DNA of 45,246 nt from an uncultured Clostridia bacterium (GTDB lineage: Bacteria; Bacillota; Clostridia; Christensenellales; UBA1242). Both the position numbers and the translations under genes were made by a program. The notes under the pieces are model-generated. The model had not been told where the DNA came from and made no database searches. It was given only the letters and a program-made list of their open reading frames with translations. Below are positions 8,026-41,669 of the stretch, piece by piece. The number at the start of each line of letters is the position of its first letter. The first letter of the stretch is position 1. Location: contig CANRGF010000002.1 in NCBI GenBank assembly GCA_947630075.1, forward strand, positions 1 through 45,246, in the 5' to 3' direction.

Positions 8026-8100
8026 AACTTAATTTAAGTTTGCTTAACTTTTGTATTAGTTTTCTATGGCTAATGTTTAAGTTACTTCATTCACTTCTCC
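8026..8100 (+). repeat. copy C of the ~70-nt promoter-like repeat, directly upstream of the recombinase gene
   Basis: AAACTTAAtTTAAGTTTgcttaacttttgtattaGTTTTCTATGGctaatgTTTAAGTtacTTCATTCActtctcc. Its reverse complement matches about three quarters of the positions of 5566-5640 in my manual alignment. Confidence 0.7.
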
Positions 8101-8139
8101 AAAAAATTTATTTATTTTCAAAATATAAAGGAGAAAACA

Positions 8140-9720: not shown

Positions 9721-9744
9721 AAGTTTATTCTATGTTTTTTTTAA

Positions 9745-9775
9745 TAAAAAACGCACCAAAATATATTTGGTACGT
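9745..9775 (-). terminator. terminator of tRNA-Ser
   Basis: ACGCACCAAA / TTTGGTACGT stem with one mismatch, then a T-run on the minus strand. Confidence 0.55.
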
Positions 9776-9787
9776 CAAAAGAACTTT

Positions 9788-9875
9788 TGGCGGAGAGCTA
9801 GGGATTCGAACCCCAGGAGGCTTGCACCTCGGCAGTTTTCAAGACTGCTGTATTAGACCACTCTACCAGCTCTCC
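9788..9875 (-). tRNA. tRNA-Ser (anticodon UGA), CCA encoded
   Basis: Reverse complement: GGAGAGCTGGTAGAGTGGTCTAATACAGCAGTCTTGAAAACTGCCGAGGTGCAAGCCTCCTGGGGTTCGAATCCCTAGCTCTCCGCCA. It has a 7-bp acceptor stem, a long variable arm, a GGTTCGAATCC T-arm and the anticodon loop CTTGAAA. Confidence 0.9.
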
Positions 9876-27343: not shown

Positions 27344-27772
27344 ATGATAGATGAAGATAGAATGTTGCACATCTTGGCAGTGGCAAATTTAATGAAAGAA
27401 AAGGCAAAAGTTTTCAATCTTGATGAAAACGAAATGTTTGCGCTCGGCTTTTTGCATGATTTGGGCTACGGACTAAATGAAGAACGCCACAACGAATTGG
27501 GCGGTGAAGTTTTAGAAAAGCAAAATTATAAATTTCATAATGAAGTGCGTTATCACGGAATGCCAAAATGCAAGTTTTCATCACCCGCATTAGACCTTTT
27601 GAATTGGTGTGATATGCACACGAATTTTCAAGGCAAATTTGTTTCGTTTGAAGAGAGGCTTAACGAAATTGCCCTCAGGCACGGAGAAACATCTAACACA
27701 TATATCAACTCAAAATTGCTAATTGACGAATTAAAAGACAAAAAATCTTTGCAAAAACTCTTGCAAAAATAA
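27344..27772 (+). CDS. HD-domain protein
   Basis: LGFLHDLGY and HNELGGEVL fit an HD phosphohydrolase signature. Confidence 0.6.
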   Translation: MIDEDRMLHILAVANLMKEKAKVFNLDENEMFALGFLHDLGYGLNEERHNELGGEVLEKQNYKFHNEVRYHGMPKCKFSSPALDLLNWCDMHTNFQGKFVSFEERLNEIALRHGETSNTYINSKLLIDELKDKKSLQKLLQK

Positions 27773-27803
27773 AAATAATGTGATAATATATGCAAGTAAA
27801 TTC

Positions 27804-27828
27804 GCCGGTATGGCGAAATGGCAGACGC
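27804..27828 (+). pseudogene. 25-nt 5' fragment of a tRNA-Leu gene (acceptor plus D-arm only)
   Basis: GCCGGTATGGCGAAATGGCAGACGC is identical to the two downstream tRNA-Leu 5' ends apart from the acceptor-stem differences. It is followed by unrelated sequence. Confidence 0.7.
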
Positions 27829-27956
27829 TCGTCACAACCTCCACCCTTTGCTTATTTGCTAGACGCAAATTAAGGCTTTTGGTGTGTTGCTCCTCTTTCC
27901 CAAGAACTTGCGTTTTGTGGGAGCCCTTAATCTTGTGCGTCTCCAAAACTAAATAT

Positions 27957-27996
27957 GCCGGTGTGGCGAAATGGCAGACGCACAAGACTCAAAATC
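27957..27996 (+). pseudogene. 5' half of the disrupted chromosomal tRNA-Leu(CAA) (attL side)
   Basis: GCCGGTGTGGCGAAATGGCAGACGCACAAGACTCAAAATC stops inside the anticodon loop. Its missing 3' half is at 41347-41392. Confidence 0.85.
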
Positions 27997-28027
27997 CTGC
28001 GAGGTTTGCCCTAAAAAATCTTAATAT

Positions 28028-28113
28028 GGCGGTGTGGCGAAATGGCAGACGCAGCAGACTCAAAATCTGCCGATAGCAATATCATGTCGGTTCGACCCCG
28101 ACCACCGCCACCA
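28028..28113 (+). tRNA. island-borne intact tRNA-Leu (anticodon CAA), CCA encoded
   Basis: GGCGGTG acceptor pairs with CACCGCC. Anticodon stem-loop GCAGA-CTCAAAA-TCTGC, long variable arm, GTCGG-TTCGACC-CCGAC T-arm. The acceptor differs from the split chromosomal copy (GCCGGTG/CACCGGC). Confidence 0.9.
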
Positions 28114-28117
28114 CAAA

Positions 28118-28160
28118 AACCCCTTAAAAATAGATGTTTTTAAGGGGTTCTTTATTTTTT
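28118..28160 (+). terminator. terminator after the island tRNA-Leu
   Basis: AACCCCTTAAAAA-tagatg-TTTTTAAGGGGTT followed by a T-rich run. Confidence 0.8.
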
Positions 28161-28170
28161 TATTGAAAAT

Positions 28171-28228
28171 ATTTTTTCTAACGGACTCCGTTAGAAAGCC
28201 CAATTTTTGCCCAAATTTATATCTTTTT
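28171..28228 (+). repeat. 58-bp perfect direct repeat, left copy (partner 41612-41669)
   Basis: ATTTTTTCTAACGGACTCCGTTAGAAAGCCCAATTTTTGCCCAAATTTATATCTTTTT is identical at both sites. Imperfect similarity extends about 30 nt further left (28141 / 41583). Confidence 0.9.
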
Positions 28229-28270
28229 AAGGGCAAATAAATACTCTAAAATTTTACGAAAAATTTCACT

Positions 28271-28303
28271 TTTCTAACGAATTTCTAACGGATTTCTAAC
28301 GAA
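28271..28303 (+). repeat. 3 x 11-bp tandem repeat TTTCTAACGRA (candidate integrase arm-type sites)
   Basis: TTTCTAACGAA TTTCTAACGGA TTTCTAACGAA. The same motif forms the palindromes at 28176-28196 and 41617-41637 and occurs once at 41154-41164. Confidence 0.7.
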
Positions 28304-28369
28304 ATGTATTTTGTATTGTTAAATTTTAACAAATTTTAGTGAGTATTTTTGTATGTTATCGTGTCTTTT

Positions 28370-29646
28370 TTACATTTCAAAATCTTGCGTTTTTCGCAAT
28401 TTTTTCTTCTCTTTTAACTGCTTTTCTAGTTCCGCAATTTCGTTTTCTAAAACTTCTTTATCCGACAAATTTGAATTGTTTTCAAAATCTAAAACGCCAG
28501 AAATAACATTTGCACTTGCAATTTTGCTTGAATAGTCCAAATGAGCATATATGTCCGCTGTGGTGTTGTAGGTGCTATGCCCTAGCCACTCTTGTATTTG
28601 TTTCATTTGCACTCCGTTTGCCAACATTAAACTTGCACAACTATGTCTTAAATCGTGAAAGCGGATTAATTTTAAATTGTTTTGCTTTTGTATAACCCTA
28701 AAATGTTGGGATAAATAATCTGGATAGTATAAAGTTCCAATATCATTAACGCAAACATAATCTAAATAGCGGTTGTCATAGGCATCTCCGCATAACTCTT
28801 TGTTTTTGCGTTGCCTTTCCTTTTCATTTAAAAGCATTTCTTCAATGTGTGGGATAAGTGGCAGCGTGCGGTTGCTTGTTTTGTTTTTCATTTTGTTTTT
28901 GCAAATCAACTTGCCTTTAATGCTTACCACTTTATGATTAATCTTAATTAATTTATTATTAAAATCTATTGAACTCCATTTTAAGCCCAACACTTCACTT
29001 CGGCGTAAACCATAATAGGCGGTTATGTGGATTATAAGTTCTAATGGGTCGCCCTTTATAACTTCAAACAATTGTTTTAGTTCATCTTTGTTGTAAAAAT
29101 CTGAGTGAAACTTTTCTTTTTTAGGGCGGTCAACAAAATCCGCAACATTTTTGAAATTAAGCCAAGTTTTATTGCGTTTTGCAATGCTTCTCGTAAAACA
29201 ACATGATAATGCATTACAGTGTTGCCTGTTTTCCCCTCTTTATATAAGGTATTGTAGTAAGTTTGAATGTCATAAGGTTTTAGTTCGTTTAGGGTTATTT
29301 GGTTTTTTGCAAAATATTTGGTCATCTTTTTAATTACAAAGCCATAACTTTCAAAGGTCAGTTCTTCCACTTCGTTTTTGCGAGATTGATACCATTGGTT
29401 AAGATATTCGTTTAATGAAATGTCGTTGGTGGGTTTGGCGTGAGTTTCAATTACATTTTCGTTGTCCTTATATTTTTGCAAAATTTCACTTAACTTTTGT
29501 TCCGCCTTTCGCTTATTGCCCTTTTCTTCATAACCTGTTGCAATCCACTTTCGTTTGTCTTGCCCAAACTCATCTTTGTAAGACAACACTGCATAATATT
29601 TCCCATTTTTAACTTGTAAACTTGCTTTCATTGTCCGCCTCGTCAA
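28370..29646 (-). pseudogene. int: tyrosine integrase split by a 1-nt frameshift in a homopolymer
   Basis: The N-terminal ORF (29077-29646) has an arm-binding plus SAM-like domain (MKASLQVKNGKYYAVLSYKDEFGQDKRKW...). The C-terminal ORF (28370-29071) has the catalytic R...HxxR...H...Y residues (GLRRSE, HDLRHSCAS, LGHS, DIYAHL). Adding one base to the T5 run at 29148-29152 gives a continuous ...SKNVADFVDRPKKEKFHSDFYNKDELKQLFEVIKGDPLE... Confidence 0.85.
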
Positions 29647-29821
29647 ATAGGAAATTTATTACATAATGTTTGGGTATAAGAATTCTATTGTTTATCTTCA
29701 AATGTTTAATTTTATTTTCAGTTATAAGTTTGTAGGCCAAATTTCTGCCAATGCCAAGCATTGCTTGTAGGTCTTTAATGCTAACAACATCTTTGTAGTT
29801 TGTAAAAATATTTGTGTTCAT
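29609..29821 (-). CDS. xis: excisionase-type HTH protein
   Basis: AGGAG RBS and ATG at 29821. VSIKDLQAMLGIGRNLAYKLITENKIKHLKINNRILIPK is a MerR/Xis-type HTH. The gene overlaps the int start. Confidence 0.7.
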   Translation of the reverse strand: MNTNIFTNYKDVVSIKDLQAMLGIGRNLAYKLITENKIKHLKINNRILIPKHYVINFLFDEADNESKFTS

Positions 29822-30245
29822 ATATCTCCTCAAAAATTACATTTTAAGTTCTATATCATTTCTATTAAATTTCTATTTTAGTTCTATTTTTACATATAAA
29901 TTTTTGAGTTTTATAGGGGTCCCCAAAATTACATGATTTTGGGGAAGAGGAAAAGCCGACCAAAAGCGAAAAAACTTGCTTTGCAATGTTTTTGAACATC
30001 ACGGTCGTGCTTTGACGAGAAAGTGGGTTTCCCACTTGTCGCAACAAAATGGGGAATGATACAAAGCGATACACTCGCTAGGGTGTGGGCGAGTCAGTAA
30101 AAATGTCCTATTTTATAGGGCTTTTTGCTACTCACCATCTCGCTTTTGTGTCAATTCCTTATCCTGCTTACTTTAAAATTTTCACTTTTTAAAGCAATTG
30201 TTGTAAAATTTACTTTCAATAAGCATAAAAATTCATTGGTTATGC

Positions 30246-30716
30246 TTACTCCACTTTGTAATCATACAAATCATAAAGTTGCTGTTGCTTTTCAATAAAT
30301 TCATCATCAAGTTTGCACAATCGTTCATAAATTTTTTTGTTTTGGTCGCGTTCAATGTAATCCATTTTTACATAATGATAATTGAACAGGACTGTTAGCA
30401 TTTGCAAAACAATTTCAACATTCGCATAAGTTGATTTAATGAAAGGTTTGCTAAACTTTATAAAGTAATTCATCCGCTTGGTATGTTCGTGTATGGCTTC
30501 AAACAAAGTTTGCTTTTCGTGTTGGATTACCCAATTGTCTTCTTCCTTTTTGGCAAACACTTCAACTCCAATTTTTAACATTGCTTGCAAAAATTGATTT
30601 TTTGATGAATAGGCAGTTTCCTTTGTTTGCTCATAAACAACATTTAATTTGTCTAGCAATTTTGAATTGTTTATCCGCACAATGTTTTCCTTTTTGATTT
30701 CACCGATGTTTATCAC
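30246..30716 (-). CDS. hypothetical helical 156-aa protein
   Basis: The ORF has an AAGGAGG just upstream. The annotated GTG is too close to the RBS, so the exact start is uncertain. Confidence 0.45.
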   Translation of the reverse strand: MINIGEIKKENIVRINNSKLLDKLNVVYEQTKETAYSSKNQFLQAMLKIGVEVFAKKEEDNWVIQHEKQTLFEAIHEHTKRMNYFIKFSKPFIKSTYANVEIVLQMLTVLFNYHYVKMDYIERDQNKKIYERLCKLDDEFIEKQQQLYDLYDYKVE

Positions 30717-30780
30717 CTCCTTTTATTTTTAAATTTTCGACCATATTTCTAACCTCCTTTCACCACCATTTTAAATGTCC

Positions 30781-30805
30781 AATTGTAACAATGCCTGTTA
30801 CAATT
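30781..30805. promoter_or_regulatory. palindromic operator-like site AATTGTAACA-N5-TGTTACAATT
   Basis: Perfect 10-bp arms, 65-90 nt upstream of the 156-aa gene. Confidence 0.5.
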
Positions 30806-30931
30806 AAAAAATTTTTAAAAAATATTTTCAACCTTATAAACTTTTAAATTAAAAATATTTTCCGCCATTTTAAACTTGTCAATGTTTCAATGCCTGACAT
30901 ATTGAAAAAAGTTTTTTAGATTTTTTTGACG

Positions 30932-30960
30932 AAAAAAACGAAGAAAAATTCTTCGTTTTT
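30932..30960 (-). terminator. terminator after the giant surface-protein gene
   Basis: ACGAAGAA-aaa-TTCTTCGT flanked by A7 and T5 runs (bidirectional shape). Confidence 0.7.
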
Positions 30961-30974
30961 AATGTTTGTCATTT

Positions 30975-33900
30975 TTATTTGTTATTATTTGTAAATTTCT
31001 TTTTCTTAATTACTAATGTTATAGTTATCGAAATAGTCGCAATTGCTAAAACGGCAAACACCACTATTAGTATGTTCCTGCCAATGTTTGATTTGCTAAT
31101 TTTAACTCCACATATAAATTCCCCTGTTTTATTAGTTGTGAATTTCAAAGAATCCCCAACAGATTCATGTGCAACCTCTTGATATTCACCATCTAAGTTT
31201 TGCCATAAACCATAAGAGTCCTTTGTTTGACAATTTATAATTACTGAGTAGTCCCCATTTAAATTATTAATAGATTCATTGTCTAATATAATGCTAATTG
31301 TGAAGGAAAATTCTTGTTTAAATTTTTTGTTCTCAGTGTTATCATAATTTAAATTAACAATTATTTCTGCACATTTTTTGTGGCTATCTTTGAAGAATTT
31401 CATAGCATTATTATCAAAAATTAATGTTGAATTAGAAAACTTAATTTCAAGTGAAGAATTGTCTTGTAAATCGGAAATGTCAACAACTGCATTATTAATT
31501 GTTGGCAAATTAGAAACATCAATAAGTTGCAAATTTTCATTTACTATCTTAATTGTATTATACAACAAATATGTAGAATAGAATGTTTGGTCGCCAGTAA
31601 CTTTTTGTCCTACTTCATAATTTTCCCATTTATCAAAAACATATTTATAAAACTCTGTTTTCGACTTTGTAGGAATGCCATATTTATTTATATTATAAGT
31701 TATTACGCTATCATAAGGCAATTTGTCAACATAAATTACATTATCGTTACCATCTATCCATGTTATATTGTACAACCGAATTATCGAATTAAAGGTGGCA
31801 GTATAAACTTCATCTTTTGTAACAGGTTCAATTTGTTTATCCCAATACGCAAAAGTATAAGTGTAGTAATTATCTTGCAATTTGGTTGGAATTCCATATA
31901 ACTCTTCATTGTAAGTCGGAGTTTCTTGATATGTATAGAATTCATTGTAAATTTCGTTTCCATTGCCATCTACCCAACTAATTTTATAATAAATAATTTC
32001 TGTATCGTACAATGCATTAACTTTTAAGACGTAATTGCTAAATTGATTAAAAATATCATTAACATTCTCGCCCACTAAAATTTTATCCCATTGTGAAAAT
32101 GTATATAAATTTCTAAAATCACTATATGTATGACTAAATTTAAATCCTTCAATTGAATCATAATAATGATAGGTCTTTGTTGTAATCAAATCACCAGCAT
32201 CCCCTATCTGTTGCGAGCCATCGAAATCGTAACCATAATAATATTCTATTGAATATTCATAATAATGTTTGCTAAAAATTGGATAATAGTGTGCTTCACA
32301 TTCTACGTTATTCAAATTAGGCGTCCACCCAGTACAAACATAAGTAAAGTAATTAGAATCTTCTGATTCTTTCGTCGGCAAAGAATAGTCATCAGAATTA
32401 AAGGTTGGCATTGTGCCATATTCCAAATTTTCACTGTAAATTAAGTTGCCCGTAGCATCATACCATGAAATTAAATATTTTCTTATTGTTGCATTATATG
32501 TGGCAACAATTGCCATATCGCCAGTGCACACGAGGTTTGAAACATCTTCGCCATTATGTTGCCATGTGTGAAAGTTAAAATCGTGTTGAATATCACTTGG
32601 CCTTGTAGGGTTTGGAGTTGGGAGCTCTATTTGTTGATTATAATGCTGACCGGTTATCTGTTTAAAAATGTCTCCCTCATCTCCAATTATTCCTGAACTA
32701 TCATAATCATAGCCATAATAAAATTTTATTATGTATTCAACATAGGTCGTAGAATAATCATTAGCAACAAATATGCGATCAGCCCATATGTTTTTAAAAT
32801 CTTCAGGATTTAGAACATCGTTATAACCATATCTTTTCCAGTTTGTAAATGTGTAGTTGTAAGTTTCGTCTGAAAAAGTCGTTGGAACAACAACATCGCT
32901 TCCGCCCTTATAATAACTTTTATCTATTATCCTACCATCGTCAAATTGAAAGGTTATCAAATTTAATGGTAATGTGCAATAAATTTTGAAATTTGGATTC
33001 TTGACATCATCGTAAACATATGTATATTTGTCAGTAATGAATTGGCCAAATGGTCCATCATAGTCTTTATCTATATAGATATATCTAATATATGATGCCC
33101 CGAAAGAATTTCCATTAATTAAATTCTCATTGTTGCCCAAAATGCAATCTTCCAATTTTTCACAACCAATAAAAGCATTTTCCTCAACTTTTTTAACATT
33201 GGATAAATCAACAATTTCAAAAGCACAATTATAAAATGCAAATGCGCAAATTGTATCACAATAACTAAAATCGAACAGCTTTAAATTTTTACAGTTTCCA
33301 AAAGCATCTTTAGGAATAACTTTAAGTTTTTTAGGATTTAAAACTTCAATTAACGATGAGCAACCATAAAAATTGTTAAATGTATTGTTATCTCCTTCGA
33401 ATGTTGAACAGTTAGAAATATCTATGCTTTGCAAACTTTCGCAACCCCAAAAAGCATATTGCCCAATAGAAGCCACATTTTCTAAATTAATTGATTTTAA
33501 ATTTTTACAATCTATAAAGGTTCTGCTTTTTATAATTTTTATTTCACCGCTTAACAAAACATTGGTTAAATTTTGGCAAGAATCAAAAGCCTGCTCTTCA
33601 AGCTCAATACAACTAGATAAATCAGCATTAACTATTTTTTTACAGTTCGACAATGAGGATTTGCCAACAACTTTACAATTAGATAGATCTAAATTAAATA
33701 AATTATAACAATCTTGAAAAGCGTCTTTTGCAATAGAAACTATGTTGCCTATTTCTAACTTTTTTAAATTAAAGCATCTGCCAAAAGCATTCTCACCAAC
33801 TGTTATACCGTTTTTATTTTCATCAATAAACTCCACATTAATACTTTCTAGTGTTGGTGTGTTGTAAAAACAAAAATCACCAAGACCAGCAAATCTATAA

Positions 33901-34376
33901 GATATTCCTTTTTCAACATAATACTGAGGAATTATAATATTAGCTTCATTGCCACTGTAAGATTTTAAAATAAATGTGCGATTACCATAATCTTTTGAAA
34001 CATAAAAGTTTGATAAATTAGGCACTTCAAAAATCGCATGTATTGTTATATTCTTATTTGGCATTGTAAAACTTGAAAAATTTTCTGCTATTGGCAAATT
34101 TGTTTTTTGTGCTTGTTCGTCTAAATAATAAAGTTCTTTCAAGTAAGTAGAATTCTGGGCTGTATGGTACACAAAGATTTGATCGCCATAGCATGCCTCG
34201 GTTATTTCGCTCTGCAAAGCATTTCTAATTGCAATTGATCCATCACCATTAATAATATTTTTTATGTAATATTTTATTGGCGTATAATTTATGGTGATTA
34301 TTACATTTCTATTTGGCATACTAAATGTGTAAAAACCGTTTATAAAATCATTTGTAATGTTTCTTTCATCCAGCAA
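30975..34376 (-). CDS. C-terminal part of the giant surface protein: BspA-type LRR (LRR_5), about 7 Listeria-Bacteroides B-repeats, C-terminal TM anchor
   Basis: LRR units (e.g. FGRCFNLKKLEIGNIVSIAKDAFQDCYNLFNLDLSNC). Repeats with Y.F..W signatures (YTFTNWKRYG, FNFHTWQHNG, YVCTGWTPN, YTFAYWDKQ, YVFDKWENY). Tail NILIVVFAVLAIATISITITLVIKKKK. There is no signal peptide and only a TTG start, so it is probably not an independent gene. Confidence 0.7.
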   Translation of the reverse strand: MLDERNITNDFINGFYTFSMPNRNVIITINYTPIKYYIKNIINGDGSIAIRNALQSEITEACYGDQIFVYHTAQNSTYLKELYYLDEQAQKTNLPIAENFSSFTMPNKNITIHAIFEVPNLSNFYVSKDYGNRTFILKSYSGNEANIIIPQYYVEKGISYRFAGLGDFCFYNTPTLESINVEFIDENKNGITVGENAFGRCFNLKKLEIGNIVSIAKDAFQDCYNLFNLDLSNCKVVGKSSLSNCKKIVNADLSSCIELEEQAFDSCQNLTNVLLSGEIKIIKSRTFIDCKNLKSINLENVASIGQYAFWGCESLQSIDISNCSTFEGDNNTFNNFYGCSSLIEVLNPKKLKVIPKDAFGNCKNLKLFDFSYCDTICAFAFYNCAFEIVDLSNVKKVEENAFIGCEKLEDCILGNNENLINGNSFGASYIRYIYIDKDYDGPFGQFITDKYTYVYDDVKNPNFKIYCTLPLNLITFQFDDGRIIDKSYYKGGSDVVVPTTFSDETYNYTFTNWKRYGYNDVLNPEDFKNIWADRIFVANDYSTTYVEYIIKFYYGYDYDSSGIIGDEGDIFKQITGQHYNQQIELPTPNPTRPSDIQHDFNFHTWQHNGEDVSNLVCTGDMAIVATYNATIRKYLISWYDATGNLIYSENLEYGTMPTFNSDDYSLPTKESEDSNYFTYVCTGWTPNLNNVECEAHYYPIFSKHYYEYSIEYYYGYDFDGSQQIGDAGDLITTKTYHYYDSIEGFKFSHTYSDFRNLYTFSQWDKILVGENVNDIFNQFSNYVLKVNALYDTEIIYYKISWVDGNGNEIYNEFYTYQETPTYNEELYGIPTKLQDNYYTYTFAYWDKQIEPVTKDEVYTATFNSIIRLYNITWIDGNDNVIYVDKLPYDSVITYNINKYGIPTKSKTEFYKYVFDKWENYEVGQKVTGDQTFYSTYLLYNTIKIVNENLQLIDVSNLPTINNAVVDISDLQDNSSLEIKFSNSTLIFDNNAMKFFKDSHKKCAEIIVNLNYDNTENKKFKQEFSFTISIILDNESINNLNGDYSVIINCQTKDSYGLWQNLDGEYQEVAHESVGDSLKFTTNKTGEFICGVKISKSNIGRNILIVVFAVLAIATISITITLVIKKKKFTNNNK

Positions 34377-37210
34377 AATCTAATTTGTAAGCCATGGTTT
34401 TGTATATTGCTATCTATTAAGATTGTGTAAGCTTGTTTGGTTGATGATCGCAAAATGTTTGTTGTAAAAATGTTGCCATATTCATCCACCGCTTGAATAA
34501 TATAATAGAACCTTCCTTCTAAAAAATTTGTAAAATAATAATTTTTATTTAAATTCAAACCTAAAAAATTTGTTTCATCCACCAAAATATCTTCGTCATC
34601 CAAAATATCATTATTTGAAGCAAATACCTTTATTACCACATTGTAACCACTAACCTCAACACAAATATTTTCATCGGTTTTTTCTTGTAAATAGGTTGAT
34701 ATATCCACAAAAACGAAATTGTTATATCCTTTATATTGGCTAATAAAATCCACATCGTAACAATAAATTGTGCAACGATGCGACGACGATATTGATAAAG
34801 AATCTTTATATAATTCTAATTCATTATCACCCAAAAACAAATAATCTAAATTGCTTGAGTTTGCAAATGCATTATCGTAAATTGATTTTATTTTTGGCAA
34901 TTCAACAAATTTGAGATTTTTGCACCCAAATAAGGTGTGTTCATAAAGTTGTTGTAAACCTAAGCCGATGAAACTTGTTATGCCACTTCCATCAAATGCA
35001 AATTCGCCTATTGATTTTATATTCTCGTTTAAAACAATGTCTTTTTTGAAAGCAACACAATCTTCAAAAGCATATTCATCAATAAAATTCAAATTGTCCC
35101 AGCTAATACTTATTTCTTTTAATTTTTTAAAGCCAGAAAAGGTTGCATATTTAATTGAACAAACATTTGGTGCGTAAATTTTTTCTAAATTAAAGCATCC
35201 CTCAAATGTGTAGCTCCCATAAAACCCATACATTGTTGAAGATGCAAGAAACGCCTCACGCAATTCACTAACTTGTGGCAAATAAAGTTCATTCAAACCA
35301 AAGCAATATTGAGCAACATATTCCGCCACCGTGGAGTTTAATTTAATGCTTTTAAGGCTGCCACAACAAACAAAAGGATAATATCCTATTGTTAAATCAT
35401 TTTCAGCAACAACAGATTCAATATTTAAACCATAAAATAAATTTTCGGCAAGTCCCTTAACCTTTACCCCATTAACATATTCTGGAATAACAATATTTTT
35501 TAAGCCGCTCGTATATTTTGTAAGCATGCCAAAACTATTAATTTCAAAACCCACACCAGTATCATTGCAATTAGAGGTGTTTTTTAAATATTCCACTTCA
35601 TAAATGGCGCTATGACCACGAATAATACCATCACTATCAAAAATATAAATAACAAATCTTAAAAATGCAGAATCATTAATTTCTATTGGCTGTATATATT
35701 CTTTGTAAGAAATCAGTGTTGGGAAAGAGCCATCAAGCGAATAATATATTTTAGCTGTATATTTTCCTTTATAATTGCTGTTTATTGTTACATCTAATTT
35801 CTCGTTAAATTTATATGTGTCATTTACTTCGCCATAATTTAGGGTTGGATTAAATTCATTTTCTTCATTTCCTAATGCCAAAGCCATTGAGGGTATGCCA
35901 TCCCCATACTCATCATCTCTTCCTACATCACCAAAATCGTAGGTGTTAGATTTTATTGCTTGCTCAACAGTTTGCACATCGTAATCTTCCCCATAATATG
36001 TTGCATACAGTGCCACCAGCCCTGTTGCGTGTGGGGTTGCCATGGAAGTTCCGCTTATAACTGCATACTTTCCACCTGTGGCAGAAGTGTATATCTTTTC
36101 GTAAGTGCTATCGTCTGGCACACAACTTAATATATTAGTCCCTGGTAAACACAAATCAACATAACCACCGTAATTTGAATAATAGGCAATATATGGGAAA
36201 TTTTCATAATATTCATTTTGAGAAAGTGCAGATATTGTAAGTGCATTTTCACAATTTGCTGGGCTACAATCTTCTACATAATAATTATCGTTGCCCGCCG
36301 CCACTACTGGCATAATGTTGTTTTCATATGCGGAGTTCACTGCATTTTGCTCATCTTCGTTAACCCCATATCCGCCCAAACTCATATTATATGCAACCAC
36401 ATTGGTTCCTTTTTGTTTAAGACTAACAACATATTCCATACCGGAAACAACATTTATTGTTGATCCTGAGCCTTCTGCATTTAACACTTTAACGGGAATA
36501 ATTTTTACATTGTCAAGAGTTAAATCTACAATTGTGCCAGCCACATGTGTACCATGCGAATTATCATCTTCAAACGGATACGAACTTTCGCCATTTGAGT
36601 AGTGTTCACTCTCATAATAACTAACTCCAAATTCATACGCTATTCTTCCAGCCAAAAATTCATTATCTGTATCAATTCCCGTATCTATAACTGCCACATA
36701 AATTTCAGGCAGATTTTCAACCGAATTATTGTATTTTTTTATGATTTCCTGTTGATAAGCATCTACTCCAAGTAAATCAGCACCCCAGGTTAAATGATTC
36801 AAGTTTTCTAGATCTGAATAATCCGAATTGACTGCCTCTATATCATCAATTGTAATTTCCGAATCGATAAAGGCATATTCGACATACTTGCAAGATGAAA
36901 AATATTCTAAAGCGGTTTGGGCCTCTACTTTTGTATTATATTGAAAAACATTTAACCCTGCAAAGCCTGAAGCTTGTTCTATACAATTCTTGTCTTCCAG
37001 TTTTCTATAAGACTTTACAATTATCCTACATTCATAATTGTATGTGTAATGTTCATTTATGTATGCTAGTTCTTTTCTATAACCCCAAAAGTCATTTACT
37101 TCGGCCATTGCATAACTTTCTTCGCCTTGTTGCGAAATAATTATACAAGGTAAAAACAATGATATTATTATGCCAATGACAACAATTAATCGTTTAAACT
37201 TTATCTTCAT
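34340..37210 (-). CDS. N-terminal part of the giant surface protein: signal peptide, I9-like pro-domain, S8 subtilase, BspA-type LRRs
   Basis: Start trimmed to the ATG at 37210 (MKIKFKRLIVVIGIIISLF) with a GGAAGG RBS. Catalytic triad contexts VAVIDTGID, HGTHVAGT and SGTSMATPH, with oxyanion NMSLGG. Confidence 0.8.
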   Translation of the reverse strand: MKIKFKRLIVVIGIIISLFLPCIIISQQGEESYAMAEVNDFWGYRKELAYINEHYTYNYECRIIVKSYRKLEDKNCIEQASGFAGLNVFQYNTKVEAQTALEYFSSCKYVEYAFIDSEITIDDIEAVNSDYSDLENLNHLTWGADLLGVDAYQQEIIKKYNNSVENLPEIYVAVIDTGIDTDNEFLAGRIAYEFGVSYYESEHYSNGESSYPFEDDNSHGTHVAGTIVDLTLDNVKIIPVKVLNAEGSGSTINVVSGMEYVVSLKQKGTNVVAYNMSLGGYGVNEDEQNAVNSAYENNIMPVVAAGNDNYYVEDCSPANCENALTISALSQNEYYENFPYIAYYSNYGGYVDLCLPGTNILSCVPDDSTYEKIYTSATGGKYAVISGTSMATPHATGLVALYATYYGEDYDVQTVEQAIKSNTYDFGDVGRDDEYGDGIPSMALALGNEENEFNPTLNYGEVNDTYKFNEKLDVTINSNYKGKYTAKIYYSLDGSFPTLISYKEYIQPIEINDSAFLRFVIYIFDSDGIIRGHSAIYEVEYLKNTSNCNDTGVGFEINSFGMLTKYTSGLKNIVIPEYVNGVKVKGLAENLFYGLNIESVVAENDLTIGYYPFVCCGSLKSIKLNSTVAEYVAQYCFGLNELYLPQVSELREAFLASSTMYGFYGSYTFEGCFNLEKIYAPNVCSIKYATFSGFKKLKEISISWDNLNFIDEYAFEDCVAFKKDIVLNENIKSIGEFAFDGSGITSFIGLGLQQLYEHTLFGCKNLKFVELPKIKSIYDNAFANSSNLDYLFLGDNELELYKDSLSISSSHRCTIYCYDVDFISQYKGYNNFVFVDISTYLQEKTDENICVEVSGYNVVIKVFASNNDILDDEDILVDETNFLGLNLNKNYYFTNFLEGRFYYIIQAVDEYGNIFTTNILRSSTKQAYTILIDSNIQNHGLQIRFCWMKETLQMIL

Positions 37211-37229
37211 AATTGTCCTTCCTATGGAC

Positions 37230-37238
37230 ATTATATCA
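37230..37238 (-). promoter_or_regulatory. extended -10 promoter element (TGATATAAT) for the protease gene
   Basis: The minus strand reads TGATATAAT about 20 nt upstream of the ATG at 37210. No good -35 is present. Confidence 0.4.
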
Positions 37239-37337
37239 TATTTTTTTTATTTGTTATATTTAAATTTACATTTTTTCATTATAATTGCAAAAAATATTCT
37301 ATCGATATATGAAAAGATTGCTCTTGTATCAATTCTA

Positions 37338-38168
37338 CTAATTATTCTCATCAAACAATTTTATCTGTTCGGGCTTTGCCGTGCGGACTATGTAGGCGTC
37401 TGGGTCTTTTTCTTGCGGAGTAAGTTCAAGGTTTGGGGCAAAGGCACGCAAACAAGCTTTGTAATAAACTTGCTTGTTTGTTGGGCGGAGTAGGGTTAAG
37501 CAATCTTGCAGGTATTTCCCCCAATCCTGCCACTTATCCTCATTGCCGCAATTGTTTAGTTTGCCAATTTTGTAGTGGTCCACACAGTCCATTTCAAGTG
37601 TTTTCTTAATTAATTTTAAGCTTTCGTCTGGCTCGATGGTCGGCTCAAAACTTGCAAAAGTTTTTATGCCATTTTCGTGCAAAATTTTTAGTGTTTCCAA
37701 TCTTTCACTTGGCAAACTTGCAAAAGGTTCCCAAAACCTGCTTTTCTTTTCATCCAAAAATGTTAATGTTGTGCCAACGGTTATTCTATCTTCAAATTCT
37801 TTAAACAAATCTAAATCTCTCAGCATGTTCTTTCCGCCTTTGCTTAAAACCGCAACCGGCACTTTATATGCGTTAAGCATTTTTAGAACTTCTCGCACAG
37901 TTTCGCCATTGTCCGCGCTATCGCAATAGCAATCGCCAACAAAAGATAGCAAAACTTGCTCGGTGTATGTGTTTTTCTTTAAATCTTGCTCTAACAATTT
38001 TAAAATATTTTTTCTGGGCGCAGGTTTGCCAAAATAGTCCTCACCTTTCTTTTGCAAAGTGTGAGGTGCATAACAATATCTGCACCTATGCGAACAACCA
38101 ATGTAAATATTTAGCGCATACGGGCTATATTCTCTCGCCATGCCTGTTGGCCTATAAATAATGCTCAT
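37338..38168 (-). CDS. radical SAM protein (SplB / COG1533-like)
   Basis: IGCSHRCRYCYA is a CxxxCxxC cluster near the N-terminus. 276 aa, with no SPASM-type extra Cys clusters visible. Confidence 0.7.
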   Translation of the reverse strand: MSIIYRPTGMAREYSPYALNIYIGCSHRCRYCYAPHTLQKKGEDYFGKPAPRKNILKLLEQDLKKNTYTEQVLLSFVGDCYCDSADNGETVREVLKMLNAYKVPVAVLSKGGKNMLRDLDLFKEFEDRITVGTTLTFLDEKKSRFWEPFASLPSERLETLKILHENGIKTFASFEPTIEPDESLKLIKKTLEMDCVDHYKIGKLNNCGNEDKWQDWGKYLQDCLTLLRPTNKQVYYKACLRAFAPNLELTPQEKDPDAYIVRTAKPEQIKLFDENN

Positions 38169-38211
38169 ATAATGATTATAGCAAATTTAAATGTTTTATC
38201 AAAATGTTATA

Positions 38212-38631
38212 TTAACAATCATATTGTAAGGATTTTATTTTATCCCAATTATCTTTTATTGTGACACCATCAATGGAAAAGTTAGATTTAAATTCTGAAA
38301 ATGTTTTGTAAGACACAAAATTGTTTGTATCAATCTCCCAAAGAGTATAGTCATTATGAACTGATAATTGATACTTTTTCCCTTCAAATTTAAATGTAAA
38401 ATCAAAACCACGTTTTACTAAATTTAAAAATTGGGGATATGTTGGTAAAAAACTTTTCCCTAATTTAAAATATCTTTTTGCTTGATTTAAACTTATAAAA
38501 TTAGGCGGATTAATAGCGTTAGGATAAGATGTAGAATATTTATCATTATTCCACCCGCACTTTTTGCATGTGCCATTGCCCCATGCATCAATTTTTAAAG
38601 TGTTCTCACACACATCACATTGTTTTTCCAT
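38212..38631 (-). CDS. zinc-ribbon (CPCC-like) protein with an immunity-like C-terminal domain
   Basis: ATG at 38631 with a GAGGA RBS. MEKQCDVCENTLKIDAWGNGTCKKCGWNND. The C-terminus YKTFSEFKSNFSIDGVTIKDNWDKIK is paralogous to the end of 38645-38927. Confidence 0.55.
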   Translation of the reverse strand: MEKQCDVCENTLKIDAWGNGTCKKCGWNNDKYSTSYPNAINPPNFISLNQAKRYFKLGKSFLPTYPQFLNLVKRGFDFTFKFEGKKYQLSVHNDYTLWEIDTNNFVSYKTFSEFKSNFSIDGVTIKDNWDKIKSLQYDC

Positions 38632-38644
38632 ATTTCCTCTAATT

Positions 38645-38927
38645 TTAATCTGCAAAGTTTAATTTAATTTTATCCCAAATATCTTTTACTTTTACGCCAT
38701 CAATGTTTATTTTGTCGGCTAATTCTTTTAACGACTTATAATTTTGATATCCTTCATCTTTTTCCATTCATAAAATTCGAAACCATCAAATTTGGTTATG
38801 CCAAACTTTCGCTTTTTATAAAAGAATTGCATTTCCAAACCATAGCCCACAATTTCCGCAAATTCATCATAAGTTAATTTTTGCTTTTTTCAACTTTTTC
38901 CATTAGTTCAAAACATTTTTCATTCAT
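38645..38927 (-). pseudogene. immunity-like ORF broken by two 1-nt homopolymer frameshifts
   Basis: ATG at 38927 (MNEKCFELMEKVEK). Adding one base to the T6 run at 38885-38890 and one to the T5 run at 38759-38763 gives ...KQKLTYDEFAEIVGYGLEMQFFYKKRKFGITKFDGFEFYEWKKDEGYQNYKSLKELADKINIDGVKVKDIWDKIKLNFAD. Confidence 0.65.
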
Positions 38928-38932
38928 ATTAA

Positions 38933-39259
38933 TCACTCCACACATTGAATTTCAAAAGATTTGGCATTTAGATAAATTGTTGGAAAATCTTGATTGTCAA
39001 AAATTATTTCAATTAAATTTTTATTAGATTTATTAATCCAAATGTTTAACAAAAAATCATTTTGCGTTTGTAAATTTAAATTATATTTCATATTACAAAC
39101 ATTATAAAATGAAACTTTAACCAGATTAGAATGTAGTTGTTTTTTTAGCGATTCAGTTGTTTCTATTGTAAATGAAAAAGTCTTTGATTGATTATCAAAT
39201 TCAAAGTCATACACTCTACAATCATGGAAATTATACTTTTTTAAATCGGTTAATTTCAT
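38933..39259 (-). CDS. hypothetical 108-aa protein, candidate cognate immunity or partner of 39256-39579
   Basis: Its start overlaps the upstream stop by 4 nt. Small, acidic and beta-rich, with no motifs recognised. Confidence 0.5.
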   Translation of the reverse strand: MKLTDLKKYNFHDCRVYDFEFDNQSKTFSFTIETTESLKKQLHSNLVKVSFYNVCNMKYNLNLQTQNDFLLNIWINKSNKNLIEIIFDNQDFPTIYLNAKSFEIQCVE

Positions 39260-39579
39260 TGTTTTCCCCTCCTTAATTCTTCCATTAATTTCAAAAATTC
39301 TTCATATGTTAAAGCAGATTCTGGTGCATGCCTAGGGCTAGGATTCCCATTTTTGTCTAGATACATATCCTCATTCCCCGTCATATTGGGGTTTTCAACA
39401 TGCCAATGCCCAGGATCGTTATTTCTTGGTGGATCATATCTTACTTTTATTTCGGTTTTATTATCCACATATTCTCTGTGTCCATGAATTCTCGCTTGCG
39501 GATGAGTAACTTCTCTATATTGACCCTTTTGACTAAAACTCCCGCCTCCGCCGCCAAAAATTTGAATGTTGATTTTCAT
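39256..39579 (-). CDS. 107-aa His-rich protein with an L27-like (Prp-site) N-terminus
   Basis: ATG at 39579 overlaps the ParB-like stop (ATGA). MKINIQIFGGGGGSFSQKGQYREVTHPQARIHGHREYVDNKTEIKVRYDPPRNNDPGHWHVENPN... Confidence 0.6.
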   Translation of the reverse strand: MKINIQIFGGGGGSFSQKGQYREVTHPQARIHGHREYVDNKTEIKVRYDPPRNNDPGHWHVENPNMTGNEDMYLDKNGNPSPRHAPESALTYEEFLKLMEELRRGKQ

Positions 39580-40613
39580 TGCAATTCCATCCATTCATCA
39601 TGATTGTAGGGGAAAACTTTCAACCTTCCACCCATTTTAGGAAATGGCTTTTCATAACATATTATAGCACTTGGCTCAATTCTTTGCAACATTTCATTAT
39701 ATCCTTTCATAAATTCTTCTTCTATCTTCGTTTTACCATAAGTGGACACAGCAACTATTGAGCCTTTTTCAATACCATCAAAACAAAAATCAAAACTTCT
39801 TTCATCTCCCCATTCAACAGTTGGAATGCACCTTAAACCAAGACTTTGAAAATAAGCTCCGCACCATCTATTTTTAAAAGTGTTTTTAATTTGTAAAGAT
39901 AAAGGCATATCTATATAAATACTATAATCTGGAGATAACAGACAATAATATTGCTTTAATTTTTCAACTGCCAATTCTGGATGAGAATAAACGTAATCAA
40001 ACCTATAATCATATGTAAAGAATTGAATAGTTTTATCAGTATTTTTTATATCATTATATTTTGCATTGTTGAAATTCATAAGTTGTATTTTATTTAAATC
40101 TATGTCTTGTTTCTTAATTAAAGGCATTTCATATTTGCCAACCATTTTAAATTCGTTTCTAACAAGTTTTTGTTTGTTGATTTTTAATAACTCATTATAA
40201 TATTCATCATTTTTTTCTACTATCTCATTATATTTACTATTTTCAATCCCAAAATCTTCAAAATTAAAATTTTGTAATTGTTTTAACTCGTCAAAAAGCA
40301 CGCCATCATCAAATCCTGTTTCCAAATTTGTTGAATTATGAGCAATAACATAAGCTCGTTGTTCTTCTTTTGTTAAATGGTCCAACCTAATACAAGGCAA
40401 AGTTTTAATCCCTAAAAGTTTTGCTGCTTCCACTCTCCCATTTCCTTCTAAAACCACATTGTTTTCGCCTGCAATTCCAATCGGGTCGTTAAAGCCAAAT
40501 TCTTCAATTGAATTTGCAATATGCCTAATTTGTTGTTTGGTGTGTATTTTTGAATTTTTATCATAATTATTTAATGTGTTGATGTCTATATACTCAATTT
40601 TTAAATCTTTCAT
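39576..40613 (-). CDS. ParB-like N-terminal (Srx-fold) domain fused to a DUF4417-like domain
   Basis: The N-terminus IANSIEEFGFNDPIGIAGENNVVLEGNGRVEAAKLLGIKTLPCIRL fits the ParB-N pattern. The C-terminal half resembles DUF4417 (recognised from memory, not searched). Confidence 0.6.
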   Translation of the reverse strand: MKDLKIEYIDINTLNNYDKNSKIHTKQQIRHIANSIEEFGFNDPIGIAGENNVVLEGNGRVEAAKLLGIKTLPCIRLDHLTKEEQRAYVIAHNSTNLETGFDDGVLFDELKQLQNFNFEDFGIENSKYNEIVEKNDEYYNELLKINKQKLVRNEFKMVGKYEMPLIKKQDIDLNKIQLMNFNNAKYNDIKNTDKTIQFFTYDYRFDYVYSHPELAVEKLKQYYCLLSPDYSIYIDMPLSLQIKNTFKNRWCGAYFQSLGLRCIPTVEWGDERSFDFCFDGIEKGSIVAVSTYGKTKIEEEFMKGYNEMLQRIEPSAIICYEKPFPKMGGRLKVFPYNHDEWMELQ

Positions 40614-41029
40614 TTCTTTCTCCTCATTTCTGGCGTAAGGCGCAAATCTTTAAGAATTTTTTCTAAATGTTTGTTGCAATCTTGCAATGTTTTGTAGTGT
40701 TCATTTTCTTTAACCATAACTTTTGGAGTCTTCCCGTCTGAACAAATCCCTGTTACAATGCGAATATATCTATCTGGCTTTTTGTTATATTCTTTCCATG
40801 CCCTATCCCTCATAATTTTAATTTGACAATATTGCCATATAAGTTCGGCATCGGTTGAAGATAATCTATATTTTATGCTTCGTTTTAATGTTGCAACAAT
40901 TTCGGCATATGCCGCCTTTTCTTCATCCGACAAAAATTCTGGGATTTGCAAAACTTCATCATTTATTCTCGCAGTTTCTTGCATTGCCTTTTTGTTTTGT
41001 TCTATCATTTGCTTTTCTAGTAAGTCCAT
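40610..41029 (-). CDS. terS: phage terminase small subunit, P27 family
   Basis: 139 aa. ...TDAELIWQYCQIKIMRDRAWKEY... and the C-terminal LKDLRLTPEMRRKK fit the P27-family pattern. Confidence 0.65.
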   Translation of the reverse strand: MDLLEKQMIEQNKKAMQETARINDEVLQIPEFLSDEEKAAYAEIVATLKRSIKYRLSSTDAELIWQYCQIKIMRDRAWKEYNKKPDRYIRIVTGICSDGKTPKVMVKENEHYKTLQDCNKHLEKILKDLRLTPEMRRKK

Positions 41030-41336
41030 TTACCCTCCAAATAGCAAAAAGGTTCTTCGCCTAGCGAAAAACCTTTTTCTTTCAAAAATATAATAACATA
41101 CAAATTTTTGAATGCTGGTTAATCATGTCAAAAATCAATAAAATTTTTTAAATTTTCTAACGAAATTTGCAAAAACTTTTTAGAATTCGCCAAAACACAT
41201 AAAAACACAAATTAAAACGAATAAATATTTTTAGGCACGCAAGTTGCCTAAGTTTACCTATTTTATAGGGGTTTTGTGCGGTAGAAAAAGGCAATAAAAG
41301 GCACAAGGAAAAACAAGGTAAAATTCTTTGTAAAAA

Positions 41337-41392
41337 ACTCAAAATCTTGCGATGGCAACATCATGTCGGTTCGACCCCGACCACCGGCACCA
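41337..41392 (+). pseudogene. 3' half of the disrupted chromosomal tRNA-Leu(CAA) (attR side; first 10 nt duplicate the core)
   Basis: ACTCAAAATC-TTGCGATGGCAACATCATGTCGGTTCGACCCCGACCACCGGCACCA. Joined to 27957-27996 it gives an 86-nt tRNA with perfect acceptor (GCCGGTG/CACCGGC) and anticodon (CAAGA/TCTTG) stems. Confidence 0.85.
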
Positions 41393-41611
41393 AGCCGCAA
41401 ATGGTTTGTGCGTGAACTTGTATCCATTTGTGTGCAAAGATGGCGTAACTCACATTCACGCATGGGCGATTTTTAAAGTGGGCAACTCCCACCGCTATAC
41501 CAAATTTAATCTTCTTTAAAGCAATCTTCGCTTTTCCGAAGTGTATAATAAAAATATTAACAAAAAAACAACCTCTATCTTTTAAGGGGTTGTTTGTTTT
41601 TTATCAAAATT

Positions 41612-41669
41612 ATTTTTTCTAACGGACTCCGTTAGAAAGCCCAATTTTTGCCCAAATTTATATCTTTTT
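41612..41669 (+). repeat. 58-bp perfect direct repeat, right copy
   Basis: Identical to 28171-28228. It includes the last three sense codons and the stop codon of the ABC-F gene. Confidence 0.9.

Follow-up and report, generated by a model that had tools for sequence, protein, structure and literature searches.

A probable integrative island of an uncultured Clostridia bacterium that splits a tRNA-Leu(CAA) gene and carries a complete tRNA-Leu(CAA) in its attachment site

The 45,246-nt stretch of DNA analysed here (hereafter the window, to which all coordinates refer; positions 1 to 45,246 of contig CANRGF010000002.1, assembly GCA_947630075.1) derives from an uncultured Clostridia bacterium and contains a host tRNA-Leu(CAA) gene in two pieces, together with a second, complete tRNA-Leu(CAA) gene within the DNA that separates them. 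An earlier note, made from the letters of the sequence, had described this arrangement as an island that interrupts its tRNA target and carries an intact replacement. All coordinates in that note proved correct, and the arrangement was compared with a set of relatives' sequences, consisting of contigs of metagenome-assembled genomes (MAGs) and virome scaffolds, to which labels such as L010, L066 and L147 refer. The features that make up the two junctions are as follows:

27957..27996, + strand: 5' half belonging to the host's tRNA-Leu(CAA), its first 40 nt, forming the host side of attL and ending in the core at 27987-27996
27997..28027, + strand: island spacer of 31 nt, from comparison of the window with L066, L067 and L147
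28028..28113, + strand: intact island tRNA-Leu(CAA), from ARAGORN and Rfam
about 28118..28159, + strand: hairpin and T-run resembling an intrinsic terminator, after the island tRNA, read from the sequence
41337..41346, + strand: copy of the core (ACTCAAAATC) at attR, read from the sequence
41347..41392, + strand: 3' half belonging to the host's tRNA-Leu(CAA), 46 nt, pairing with 27957-27996 and directly preceded by ACTCAAAATC

Two tRNA genes are found by ARAGORN in a census that covers the window alone, namely a tRNA-Ser(TGA) at 9788-9875 and the tRNA-Leu(CAA) at 28028-28113, the latter also matched by the Rfam tRNA model (55.4 bits, E 5.8e-11). No ARAGORN tRNA is found at 27957, nor at the attL or attR junction. 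When positions 27957-27996 and 41347-41392 are joined in silico, an 86-nt tRNA-Leu(CAA) results that ARAGORN accepts, with the acceptor (GCCGGTG/CACCGGC) and anticodon stem (CAAGA/TCTTG) that the earlier note had given for it. Equally borne out are the 13,350 bp between the two halves, the duplicated core that bounds them, the complete gene lying 31 nt further in, and the terminator of that gene's own, of which both the hairpin and the T-run are present. The island tRNA has the acceptor GGCGGTG/CACCGCC, the anticodon stem GCAGA/TCTGC and an encoded CCA. In the entire window the core ACTCAAAATC occurs only three times, at 27987, at 28058 (within the island tRNA) and at 41337. The note had further stated that the attL junction breaks the anticodon stem, which is only partly accurate: the stem reads TCCTG for TCTTG, so that a single pair would be lost from it, and the actual loss is of all that lies further 3', namely the variable arm, the T arm and the 3' strand of the acceptor. 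The first eight nucleotides of the spacer (CTGCGAGG) are an imperfect continuation of the tRNA, while its end (AATCTTAATAT) is similar to the sequence found natively upstream of the tRNA.

Eight positions distinguish the joined host gene from that of the island, and all of them are accounted for by four compensatory pair swaps (2:81, 27:43, 28:42 and 48:53), in agreement with the compensatory changes that the note had reported in the carried copy; four complete pairs were not obtained once in 200,000 random draws of eight sites. Three of the four compensatory pairs cross the split between 27957-27996 and 41347-41392, and these two segments are therefore the halves of one gene. Conversely, a hybrid of the host 5' half and the island 3' half would contain three mismatched pairs (C2.C81, C27.C43 and A28.G42). 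The host and island tRNAs are thus two separate, self-consistent genes.

The site without its insert can be seen in related genomes. A scan recovered an uninterrupted anticodon arm in 12 genomes, which are MAGs of uncultured Clostridia and of Candidatus Onthoplasma; in L010 and 11 others, the intact gene has a 5' half that is an exact match to 27957-27996. L010, whose left flank is 95.9% identical to that of the window over 2,923 nt and whose PolA protein is 98% identical, belongs to the species of the window organism or to a sister species; in it the tRNA is uninterrupted and is followed by the first 21 nt of the window's right flank, up to the end of the contig. The native sequence of ~270 bp that lies past the 3' half likewise follows the intact tRNA in L005, L008 and L012. 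Because the halves are contiguous in L010 and the native ~270 bp stands behind an intact tRNA in these relatives, the simplest history suggested by the comparison is that an L010-like ancestor received 27997-41346 in one insertion event.

From the two junctions, attB would read ..CGCACAAG-ACTCAAAATC-TTGCGATGG.. and attP ..TTGTAAAAA-ACTCAAAATC-CTGCGAGGT.., and the identity between them amounts to 10 bp, or to 16 of 18 when the flanks are included. The island is without the remaining ~38 nt of the tRNA 3' half, and the crossover falls in the anticodon loop, a classical sublocation. Since only the 10-bp core is shared, what remains of the host gene is two dead halves, the 5' one at attL and the 3' one at attR; the note's statement that the target gene is not restored accordingly stands. 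Taken together, these observations make it probable that 27997-41346 is an integrative island that has split the host tRNA-Leu(CAA) and that carries a complete, putative replacement within its attP.

The same design recurs in relatives. The island tRNA is 100% identical in L066, L067 and L147, and the 31-nt spacer is the same in L147 and carries two to three changes near its 3' end in L066 and L067. In L066 (PolA 79%), a host 5' half beginning GCCAGTG is followed by the spacer, the tRNA and the motifs described below, and then by a radical-SAM gene, the integrase and cargo being gone. In L067 (PolA 77%), a decayed 5' half, the spacer and the tRNA are followed by ~1.7 kb of other DNA and then by ABC-F; the host 3' half and most of the island are lost, leaving the island tRNA as the sole copy at the locus, and its retention appears consistent with loss of that tRNA mattering. 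In L147 (PolA 61%), the promoter, 5' half, 31-nt spacer, tRNA and terminator are all present and the island is absent, an arrangement that we read as an island-less scar.

More distant relatives extend this picture. L014, a different host with an integrase only 66% identical to that of the window, has a 40-nt host 5' half beginning GCCGGAG, a 30-nt spacer and a tRNA of its own (GCTGGAG/CTCCAGC). L030 carries the same island type as L014; in it the host promoter lies directly against the tRNA and pair 6:67 is a U.U mismatch, so that the gene looks like a classical hybrid, putatively formed via the anticodon loop of the island tRNA itself. Integrases at 41-50% identity are convergent to Leu-TAA, Arg-ACG, Ser-CGA or Met tRNAs, the tRNA lying 50-500 nt past the 3' end of the integrase gene. 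No fewer than eight such loci (L015, L022, L027, L031, L044 and L045, and L149 and L151 among the virome scaffolds) have, 35-150 nt upstream of an intact tRNA, a 5' half or a pair of them that stops within the anticodon loop or shortly past it. Both island ends are visible in L015, where the proximal 5' half (GCACCGT) pairs with the far 3' half (ACGGTGC), and the acceptor of the island tRNA (GCACCAT/ATGGTGC) differs from that of the host halves.

A separate observation concerns L148 (MT836946.1, from a human faecal virome), in which positions ~3640-5136 contain a bare core (ACTCGAAATC), a spacer of ~140 nt, a tRNA-Ser(CGA) and a convergent integrase, with ParA, ParB and HTH_17 genes on one side and xis, DUF6551 and PemK genes on the other. 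This may be the unintegrated attP of a related element, although the flanks do no more than hint at it and the scaffold is a linear one.

The position of the carried tRNA relative to the host's own signals bears directly upon how it might be expressed, and the host sequence on either side of the island contains the following:

27761..27789, + strand: predicted host promoter of the tRNA-Leu unit (TTGCAA, 17 nt, TGnTAATAT), from our own scan
27804..27956, + strand: older unit, conserved across relatives, consisting of a tRNA 5' fragment (nt 1-25) and a leader of ~120 nt (LDR)
41393..41610, + strand: native host sequence downstream of the tRNA, which follows the intact tRNA in L005, L008 and L012 at 82-89% identity

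The TTGCAA-17-TGnTAATAT promoter is also kept upstream of tRNA-Leu in L005, L009, L012 and L030. Our scan found no sigma-70-like promoter between the host promoter and the island tRNA, the spacer included, and none in the last 240 nt of the right end of the island. As the host promoter is the only good one upstream, we infer that the island tRNA is expressed by read-through. The earlier note had proposed that the island inactivates its target and complements it in trans. The structural steps of that proposal are supported by the comparison, and the replacement is better described as occurring in situ, because the carried gene stands 31 nt behind the dead 5' half, in the same orientation, with no promoter of its own detected and with the host promoter upstream.

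The older unit at 27804-27956 pre-dates the island, being present in the empty-site genome L010 and seven other genomes. Units consisting of tRNA nt 1-25 and the LDR are listed in L001, L004, L006 (two copies), L007, L009, L010 and L012, as well as in L066, L069, L073, L075, L078 and L084. Pairing is possible between the start of the LDR and tRNA nt 4-13, and an antisense match to tRNA nt 20-31 lies at its end (TCTTGTGCGTCT); RNAalifold yields hairpins in which several pairs are changed on both sides, comparison of the LDR with Rfam gave no match, and inverted copies adjoin the tRNA 5' end in L002 and L014. The LDR could be a structured leader, a small RNA or a fossil spacer from an older replacement. 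That the 27804 fragment might be a scar of the present island family was also considered, but it ends at tRNA nt 25 and not in the anticodon loop, and the leader covaries in the manner of an RNA.

The PolA-linked locus varies in another respect. In L078, L079 and L080 it holds a tRNA-Leu(TAA) rather than a tRNA-Leu(CAA), ~350-450 nt upstream of PolA; the first 25 nt are the same and the T-arm region differs at one position, which suggests an anticodon switch at this locus.

Within the island, and in one case beyond it, lie repeats that are relevant to recombination:

28272..28303, + strand: three direct TTCTAACGRA repeats, candidate arm-type sites (P' arm), from the motif count
41155..41164, + strand: TTCTAACGAA motif across the core from these repeats, a candidate P-arm site, from the motif count
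41225..41336, + strand: island-specific right-end arm; L038 and L012 match the side of the small-terminase-like (TerS-like) gene as far as ~41225 and then diverge
28139..28228, + strand: left copy of DR2, a direct repeat of 90 nt that contains the palindrome TTCTAACGGAcTCCGTTAGAA; this copy is kept in the L066 and L067 islands
41580..41669, + strand: right copy of DR2, overlapping the terminator and final codons of ABC-F (gene at 41658-43298, - strand)

The TTCTAACGRA motif occurs nine times in the window where 0.12 occurrences are expected, and eight of the nine lie within ~300 nt of two of the core copies. An identical 33-nt block of three repeats is found in L014 and L030, despite an integrase at only 66% identity. 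We read these motifs as candidate arm-type integrase sites, a reading that would place the tRNA inside attP. The two copies of DR2 are 89% identical overall, with the last 57 nt identical by reading and a perfect 21-bp palindrome inside. As to their origin, either the island captured chromosomal DNA or the chromosome keeps a piece of an earlier island.

The insert 27997-41346 (13,350 bp) has a G+C content of 30.9%, compared with 34.5-36.9% in its flanks, and its recognised genes all lie on the minus strand:

28370..29646, - strand: tyrosine integrase of ~420 aa with R..HxxR..Y and an arm-binding N-terminus, from Pfam, PHROG and three-frame translation
29609..29833, - strand: Xis-like HTH_17 protein of 74 aa (Pfam PF12728); the order xis then int is also found in relatives
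30975..37231, - strand: cargo genes for a BspA-type leucine-rich-repeat (LRR) protein of 1133 aa and a subtilase-LRR fusion of 963 aa, from Pfam
37338..41029, - strand: phage-like module of radical SAM, CPCC protein, small open reading frames, DUF4417/ParB-N nuclease and TerS-like genes, from Pfam and PHROGs

The integrase, which ends 257 nt from the island tRNA, shows the lambda-type organisation (Pfam Phage_integrase and SAM-like domains; PHROG integrase) and is interrupted by a 1-nt frameshift at ~29147, where the window has T5 and the sister copy in L013 has T6. The L013 copy reads through this spot and is intact over residues 1-306, such that either the window copy was inactivated recently or the assembly is in error at this point. 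In L005 and L012 the right-hand module has 94-96% identity, against only 68-84% for their housekeeping DNA, and this excess therefore points to horizontal movement of the module. In these two relatives (the same as L070 and L072), the homologues from radical SAM to TerS lie between the native ~270 bp and ABC-F, without an integrase; this would be a related element at a different insertion point. The cargo, which is missing from the L066 version of the island, consists of two very large proteins of secreted type, one with S8 subtilase and chitobiase-type domains, and the BspA-like LRR proteins are plausibly surface or host-interaction factors.

Pfam and PHROGs detected nothing among the island proteins for capsid, portal, tail or lysis, and megablast of the island against a phage collection returned no match. 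Several traits of a phage satellite of the phage-inducible chromosomal island (PICI) type are present, namely the 13.35-kb size, Int, the Xis-like and TerS-like proteins and the lack of structural genes; set against the PICI type, LRR/subtilase cargo takes up more than 6 kb and no primase or replication module is recognised. The carrier thus appears to be an island, possibly a satellite, rather than a full phage. Elsewhere, the exact island-side junction is absent from the viral and Joint Genome Institute (JGI) metagenome contig collections, integrase searches of viral and metagenome contigs gave relatives at no more than 52% identity, and exact-protein look-up gave no match for the Xis-like protein and a single 1.2-kb contig for TerS. 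The window contains a further likely mobile element at 6452-9875, with a large serine recombinase of 526 aa (8140-9720, + strand) that ends 68 nt from the tRNA-Ser(TGA) at 9788-9875 (- strand) and, to its left, an S24/LexA-like repressor (6780-7385) and a block of small open reading frames.

In the mechanism that we propose, the integrase, assisted by Xis for the reverse reaction, would recombine core with core, and the host gene would be split and not rebuilt. The carried tRNA would land co-oriented, with the core 31 nt away on one side and the candidate arm-type sites on the other, and would take over the host unit, being preceded directly by the host promoter, old leader and dead 5' half and followed by its own terminator. 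Transcription would then read through from the host promoter and stop at the island terminator, with RNase P freeing the 5' end of the tRNA, whose function would take the place of the lost gene. Carriage of a whole tRNA would avoid a mismatched host/island hybrid and allow entry into hosts with a diverged tRNA-Leu; with no need for the host 5' part and the island 3' part to match, host range would widen. Precise excision at the core by Int and Xis would rebuild the host gene, so that there would be no strict addiction. Decay of the island would fix the foreign tRNA, as may be under way where the integrase is broken (window), deleted (L066) or the distal half is lost (L067).

Several points weigh against this account. 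A second tRNA-Leu(CAA) may exist elsewhere in the host genome, the survey having covered the window. Expression of the island tRNA is presumed, and tRNA-Leu(CAA) may be dispensable in this host; tRNA-Leu(UAA) is often able to read UUG, and leuX of Escherichia coli is dispensable. The frameshift in the integrase means that the window copy is possibly immobile now, unless it is an assembly error, and the viral and JGI metagenome collections yielded neither a circular attP nor an exact sister junction. Finally, the DR2 repeat is unaccounted for by a single core-mediated insertion.

It is this repeat that underlies a different history, in which the island entered by Campbell-type homologous recombination through the 90-nt DR2 rather than by integrase at a 10-bp core. 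The repeats bracket everything from int to the 3' half and the native downstream segment, they end in 57 identical bases, and related island genes in L005 and L012 sit between the native segment and ABC-F. Such a route would require a prior chromosome that already held the 5' half, the 31 nt and the foreign tRNA, as well as a circle that held the host's own 3' half and the ~270 bp of native sequence, yet this segment follows the intact tRNA in L005, L008, L010 and L012, one insertion exactly at the core accounts for the difference between the window and L010, and the core-bounded junction recurs at other tRNAs without DR2. We regard this route as quite improbable, and DR2 as the true att site is the less parsimonious choice, the ~270 bp past the 3' half being native. 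Classical restoration, in which 28028-28113 would combine a 5' part from the host with a 3' part from the island and 27957-27996 would be an unrelated older relic, is very improbable: the tRNA and a near-identical spacer occur in four genomes whose host 5' halves differ, the far 3' half is perfectly complementary in its pairs to 27957-27996 but would leave three pairs mismatched with the 5' half of 28028-28113, and the halves are contiguous in L010. Pairing and cross-genome identity thus largely refute a hybrid tRNA here, even though the geometry is typical (an intact tRNA beside int and a 3' fragment at the far end), the sister-family L030 resembles a true hybrid in its abutting promoter and U6.U67, and older 5' fragments do occur upstream of the tRNA-Leu gene. 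A tandem pair of host tRNAs with an insertion in the first copy was also considered and fails because the order of the parts is wrong.

Of another kind is the view that the structure is as described and the island tRNA is no functional replacement, the host tolerating the loss by tRNA-Leu(UAA) wobble or a second copy, and the island tRNA being a passenger, a structural remnant of attP or a counter-defence tRNA. Other roles have been proposed for phage tRNAs (discussion in PMC10865867), and L078-L080 carry at this locus a tRNA-Leu(TAA) with a nearly identical body. Set against this are the complete identity of the island tRNA in four genomes, its retention in L067 after decay of the island, the restriction of its differences from the host gene to compensatory pairs, and the presence of a cognate tRNA beside the core in relatives that target four different tRNAs; we consider it unlikely that the gene is not a replacement. 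An assembly artefact, whether from chimeric joining or from the collapse of a repeat at tRNA-like sequence, is extremely improbable. All sequences are short-read MAG contigs, and contig breaks are frequent near the locus (L010, L013, L014), yet the junction is present in four independent assemblies (the window and the MAGs L066, L067 and L147) from different samples and with different host 5' halves, and analogous junctions occur at other tRNAs in unrelated datasets. The artefact that the earlier note had allowed for is thereby answered, and the account preferred here remains the integrative island with its replacement tRNA.

The closest precedent for such an island is tRNA-dependent lysogeny, shown experimentally in actinobacteriophages, in which cores of 8-17 bp are used, the host tRNA is not rebuilt and a cognate phage tRNA is required for viable integration (Guerrero-Bustamante and Hatfull, 2024; PMC10865867). 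One such phage, Gaia, targets tRNA-Leu-CAA through an 8-bp core and has its tRNA 'downstream of Int'; close relatives rebuild the tRNA, and a carried tRNA can act as attB (PMC10865867). The Clostridia island shares with that system a tyrosine integrase with an arm-binding domain, an attB within a tRNA gene (here the anticodon loop of tRNA-Leu(CAA)), a short core with no functional tRNA at attL or attR, an element-borne tRNA with the anticodon of the target, and the coexistence of rebuilding and non-rebuilding close relatives. The systems differ in the location of the carried gene: Fionnbharth (K4) and Cluster L have their phage tRNA in another part of the genome, and that of Fionnbharth has a demonstrated promoter of its own (PMC10865867), whereas in the island family the tRNA lies in attP, 30-150 nt from the core and co-oriented, with no promoter of its own detected. 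Given the tRNA 'downstream of Int' in Gaia, placement beside the core may not be wholly unprecedented. Moreover, the carrier here is not a temperate phage: it is a 13-kb island of gut Clostridia in which, as to phage-like functions of this kind, only the TerS-like gene and that for the ParB-N/DUF4417 nuclease were identified. A further case comes from a Firmicute, the Lactobacillus johnsonii prophage Lj965, which, in the citing paper's account of it, does not rebuild its target tRNA and encodes a cognate tRNA (cited in PMC10865867). Lj965 differs in being a complete 40-kb phage whose four tRNA genes lie ~12 kb from int, between early and late genes.

Classical islands and prophages that target tRNA genes, including an anticodon-loop class, were reportedly treated by Williams in 2002. 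As described in the portion of PMC4383910 drawn on here, classical islands supply only the 3' part of the tRNA and regenerate a hybrid gene. The present island is like the Islander elements of that source in having int near an intact tRNA, a displaced 3' fragment at the distal end and a crossover in the anticodon loop, and unlike the classical elements, so far as that portion describes them, in forming no hybrid, in having an extra 5' half upstream and in that the whole intact gene is foreign. Similarly, in the part of PMC11476347 drawn on here, phage-related sequences of Sinorhizobium meliloti inactivate a tRNA gene and bring a similar isoacceptor that resembles those of other taxa, as in the island, where the host tRNA is inactivated and an element-borne gene replaces it. 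Those elements belong to Alphaproteobacteria, and that part of the paper describes neither core-adjacent placement nor stacked 5' halves nor island-less scars (PMC11476347). The principle has already been published (PMC10865867), and the island does not represent a new kind of mechanism. What sets it apart is the compact layout, with the location of the tRNA in attP, co-oriented and behind the host promoter, the island as carrier, and the decay, fixation and stacked scars seen in relatives.

A further and more tentative reading, which we hold to be possible and rather doubtful, would give the attP of these islands two cores, of which core1 lies upstream of the tRNA that is carried and core2 within that tRNA's anticodon loop, and would make the element an engine of serial tRNA replacement. 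Entry by core1 and exit by core2 would leave a scar of 5' half and spacer and would swap tRNA halves with the host, and L147 resembles such a scar. Repeated cycles would then have left their record in the 5' halves that are stacked in L015, L022 and L044. Entry by core2, which L030 resembles, followed by exit through the upstream core would capture a complete host tRNA. If this reading is true, the family would serve in nature to replace tRNA genes serially and horizontally across species, the island tRNA would be expressed by promoter capture, and the LDR might be the fossil spacer of an earlier replacement.

The prevalence of tRNA-dependent integration outside actinobacteriophages was left as a question in 2024 (PMC10865867), and the present locus and its relatives bear on it, extending the strategy to uncultured gut Clostridia and one Spirochaetales MAG and to at least four tRNA species. 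In practical terms, island finders that assume a hybrid tRNA and a 3' fragment may misplace boundaries at such loci, and stray tRNA 5' halves are usable as markers of past events. The relatives of this island provide a series of states, comprising the empty site, the full island, the integrase-less derivative, the fixed foreign tRNA without a host 3' half and the bare scar, and this series shows a route by which mobile elements can turn over supposedly conserved tRNA genes.

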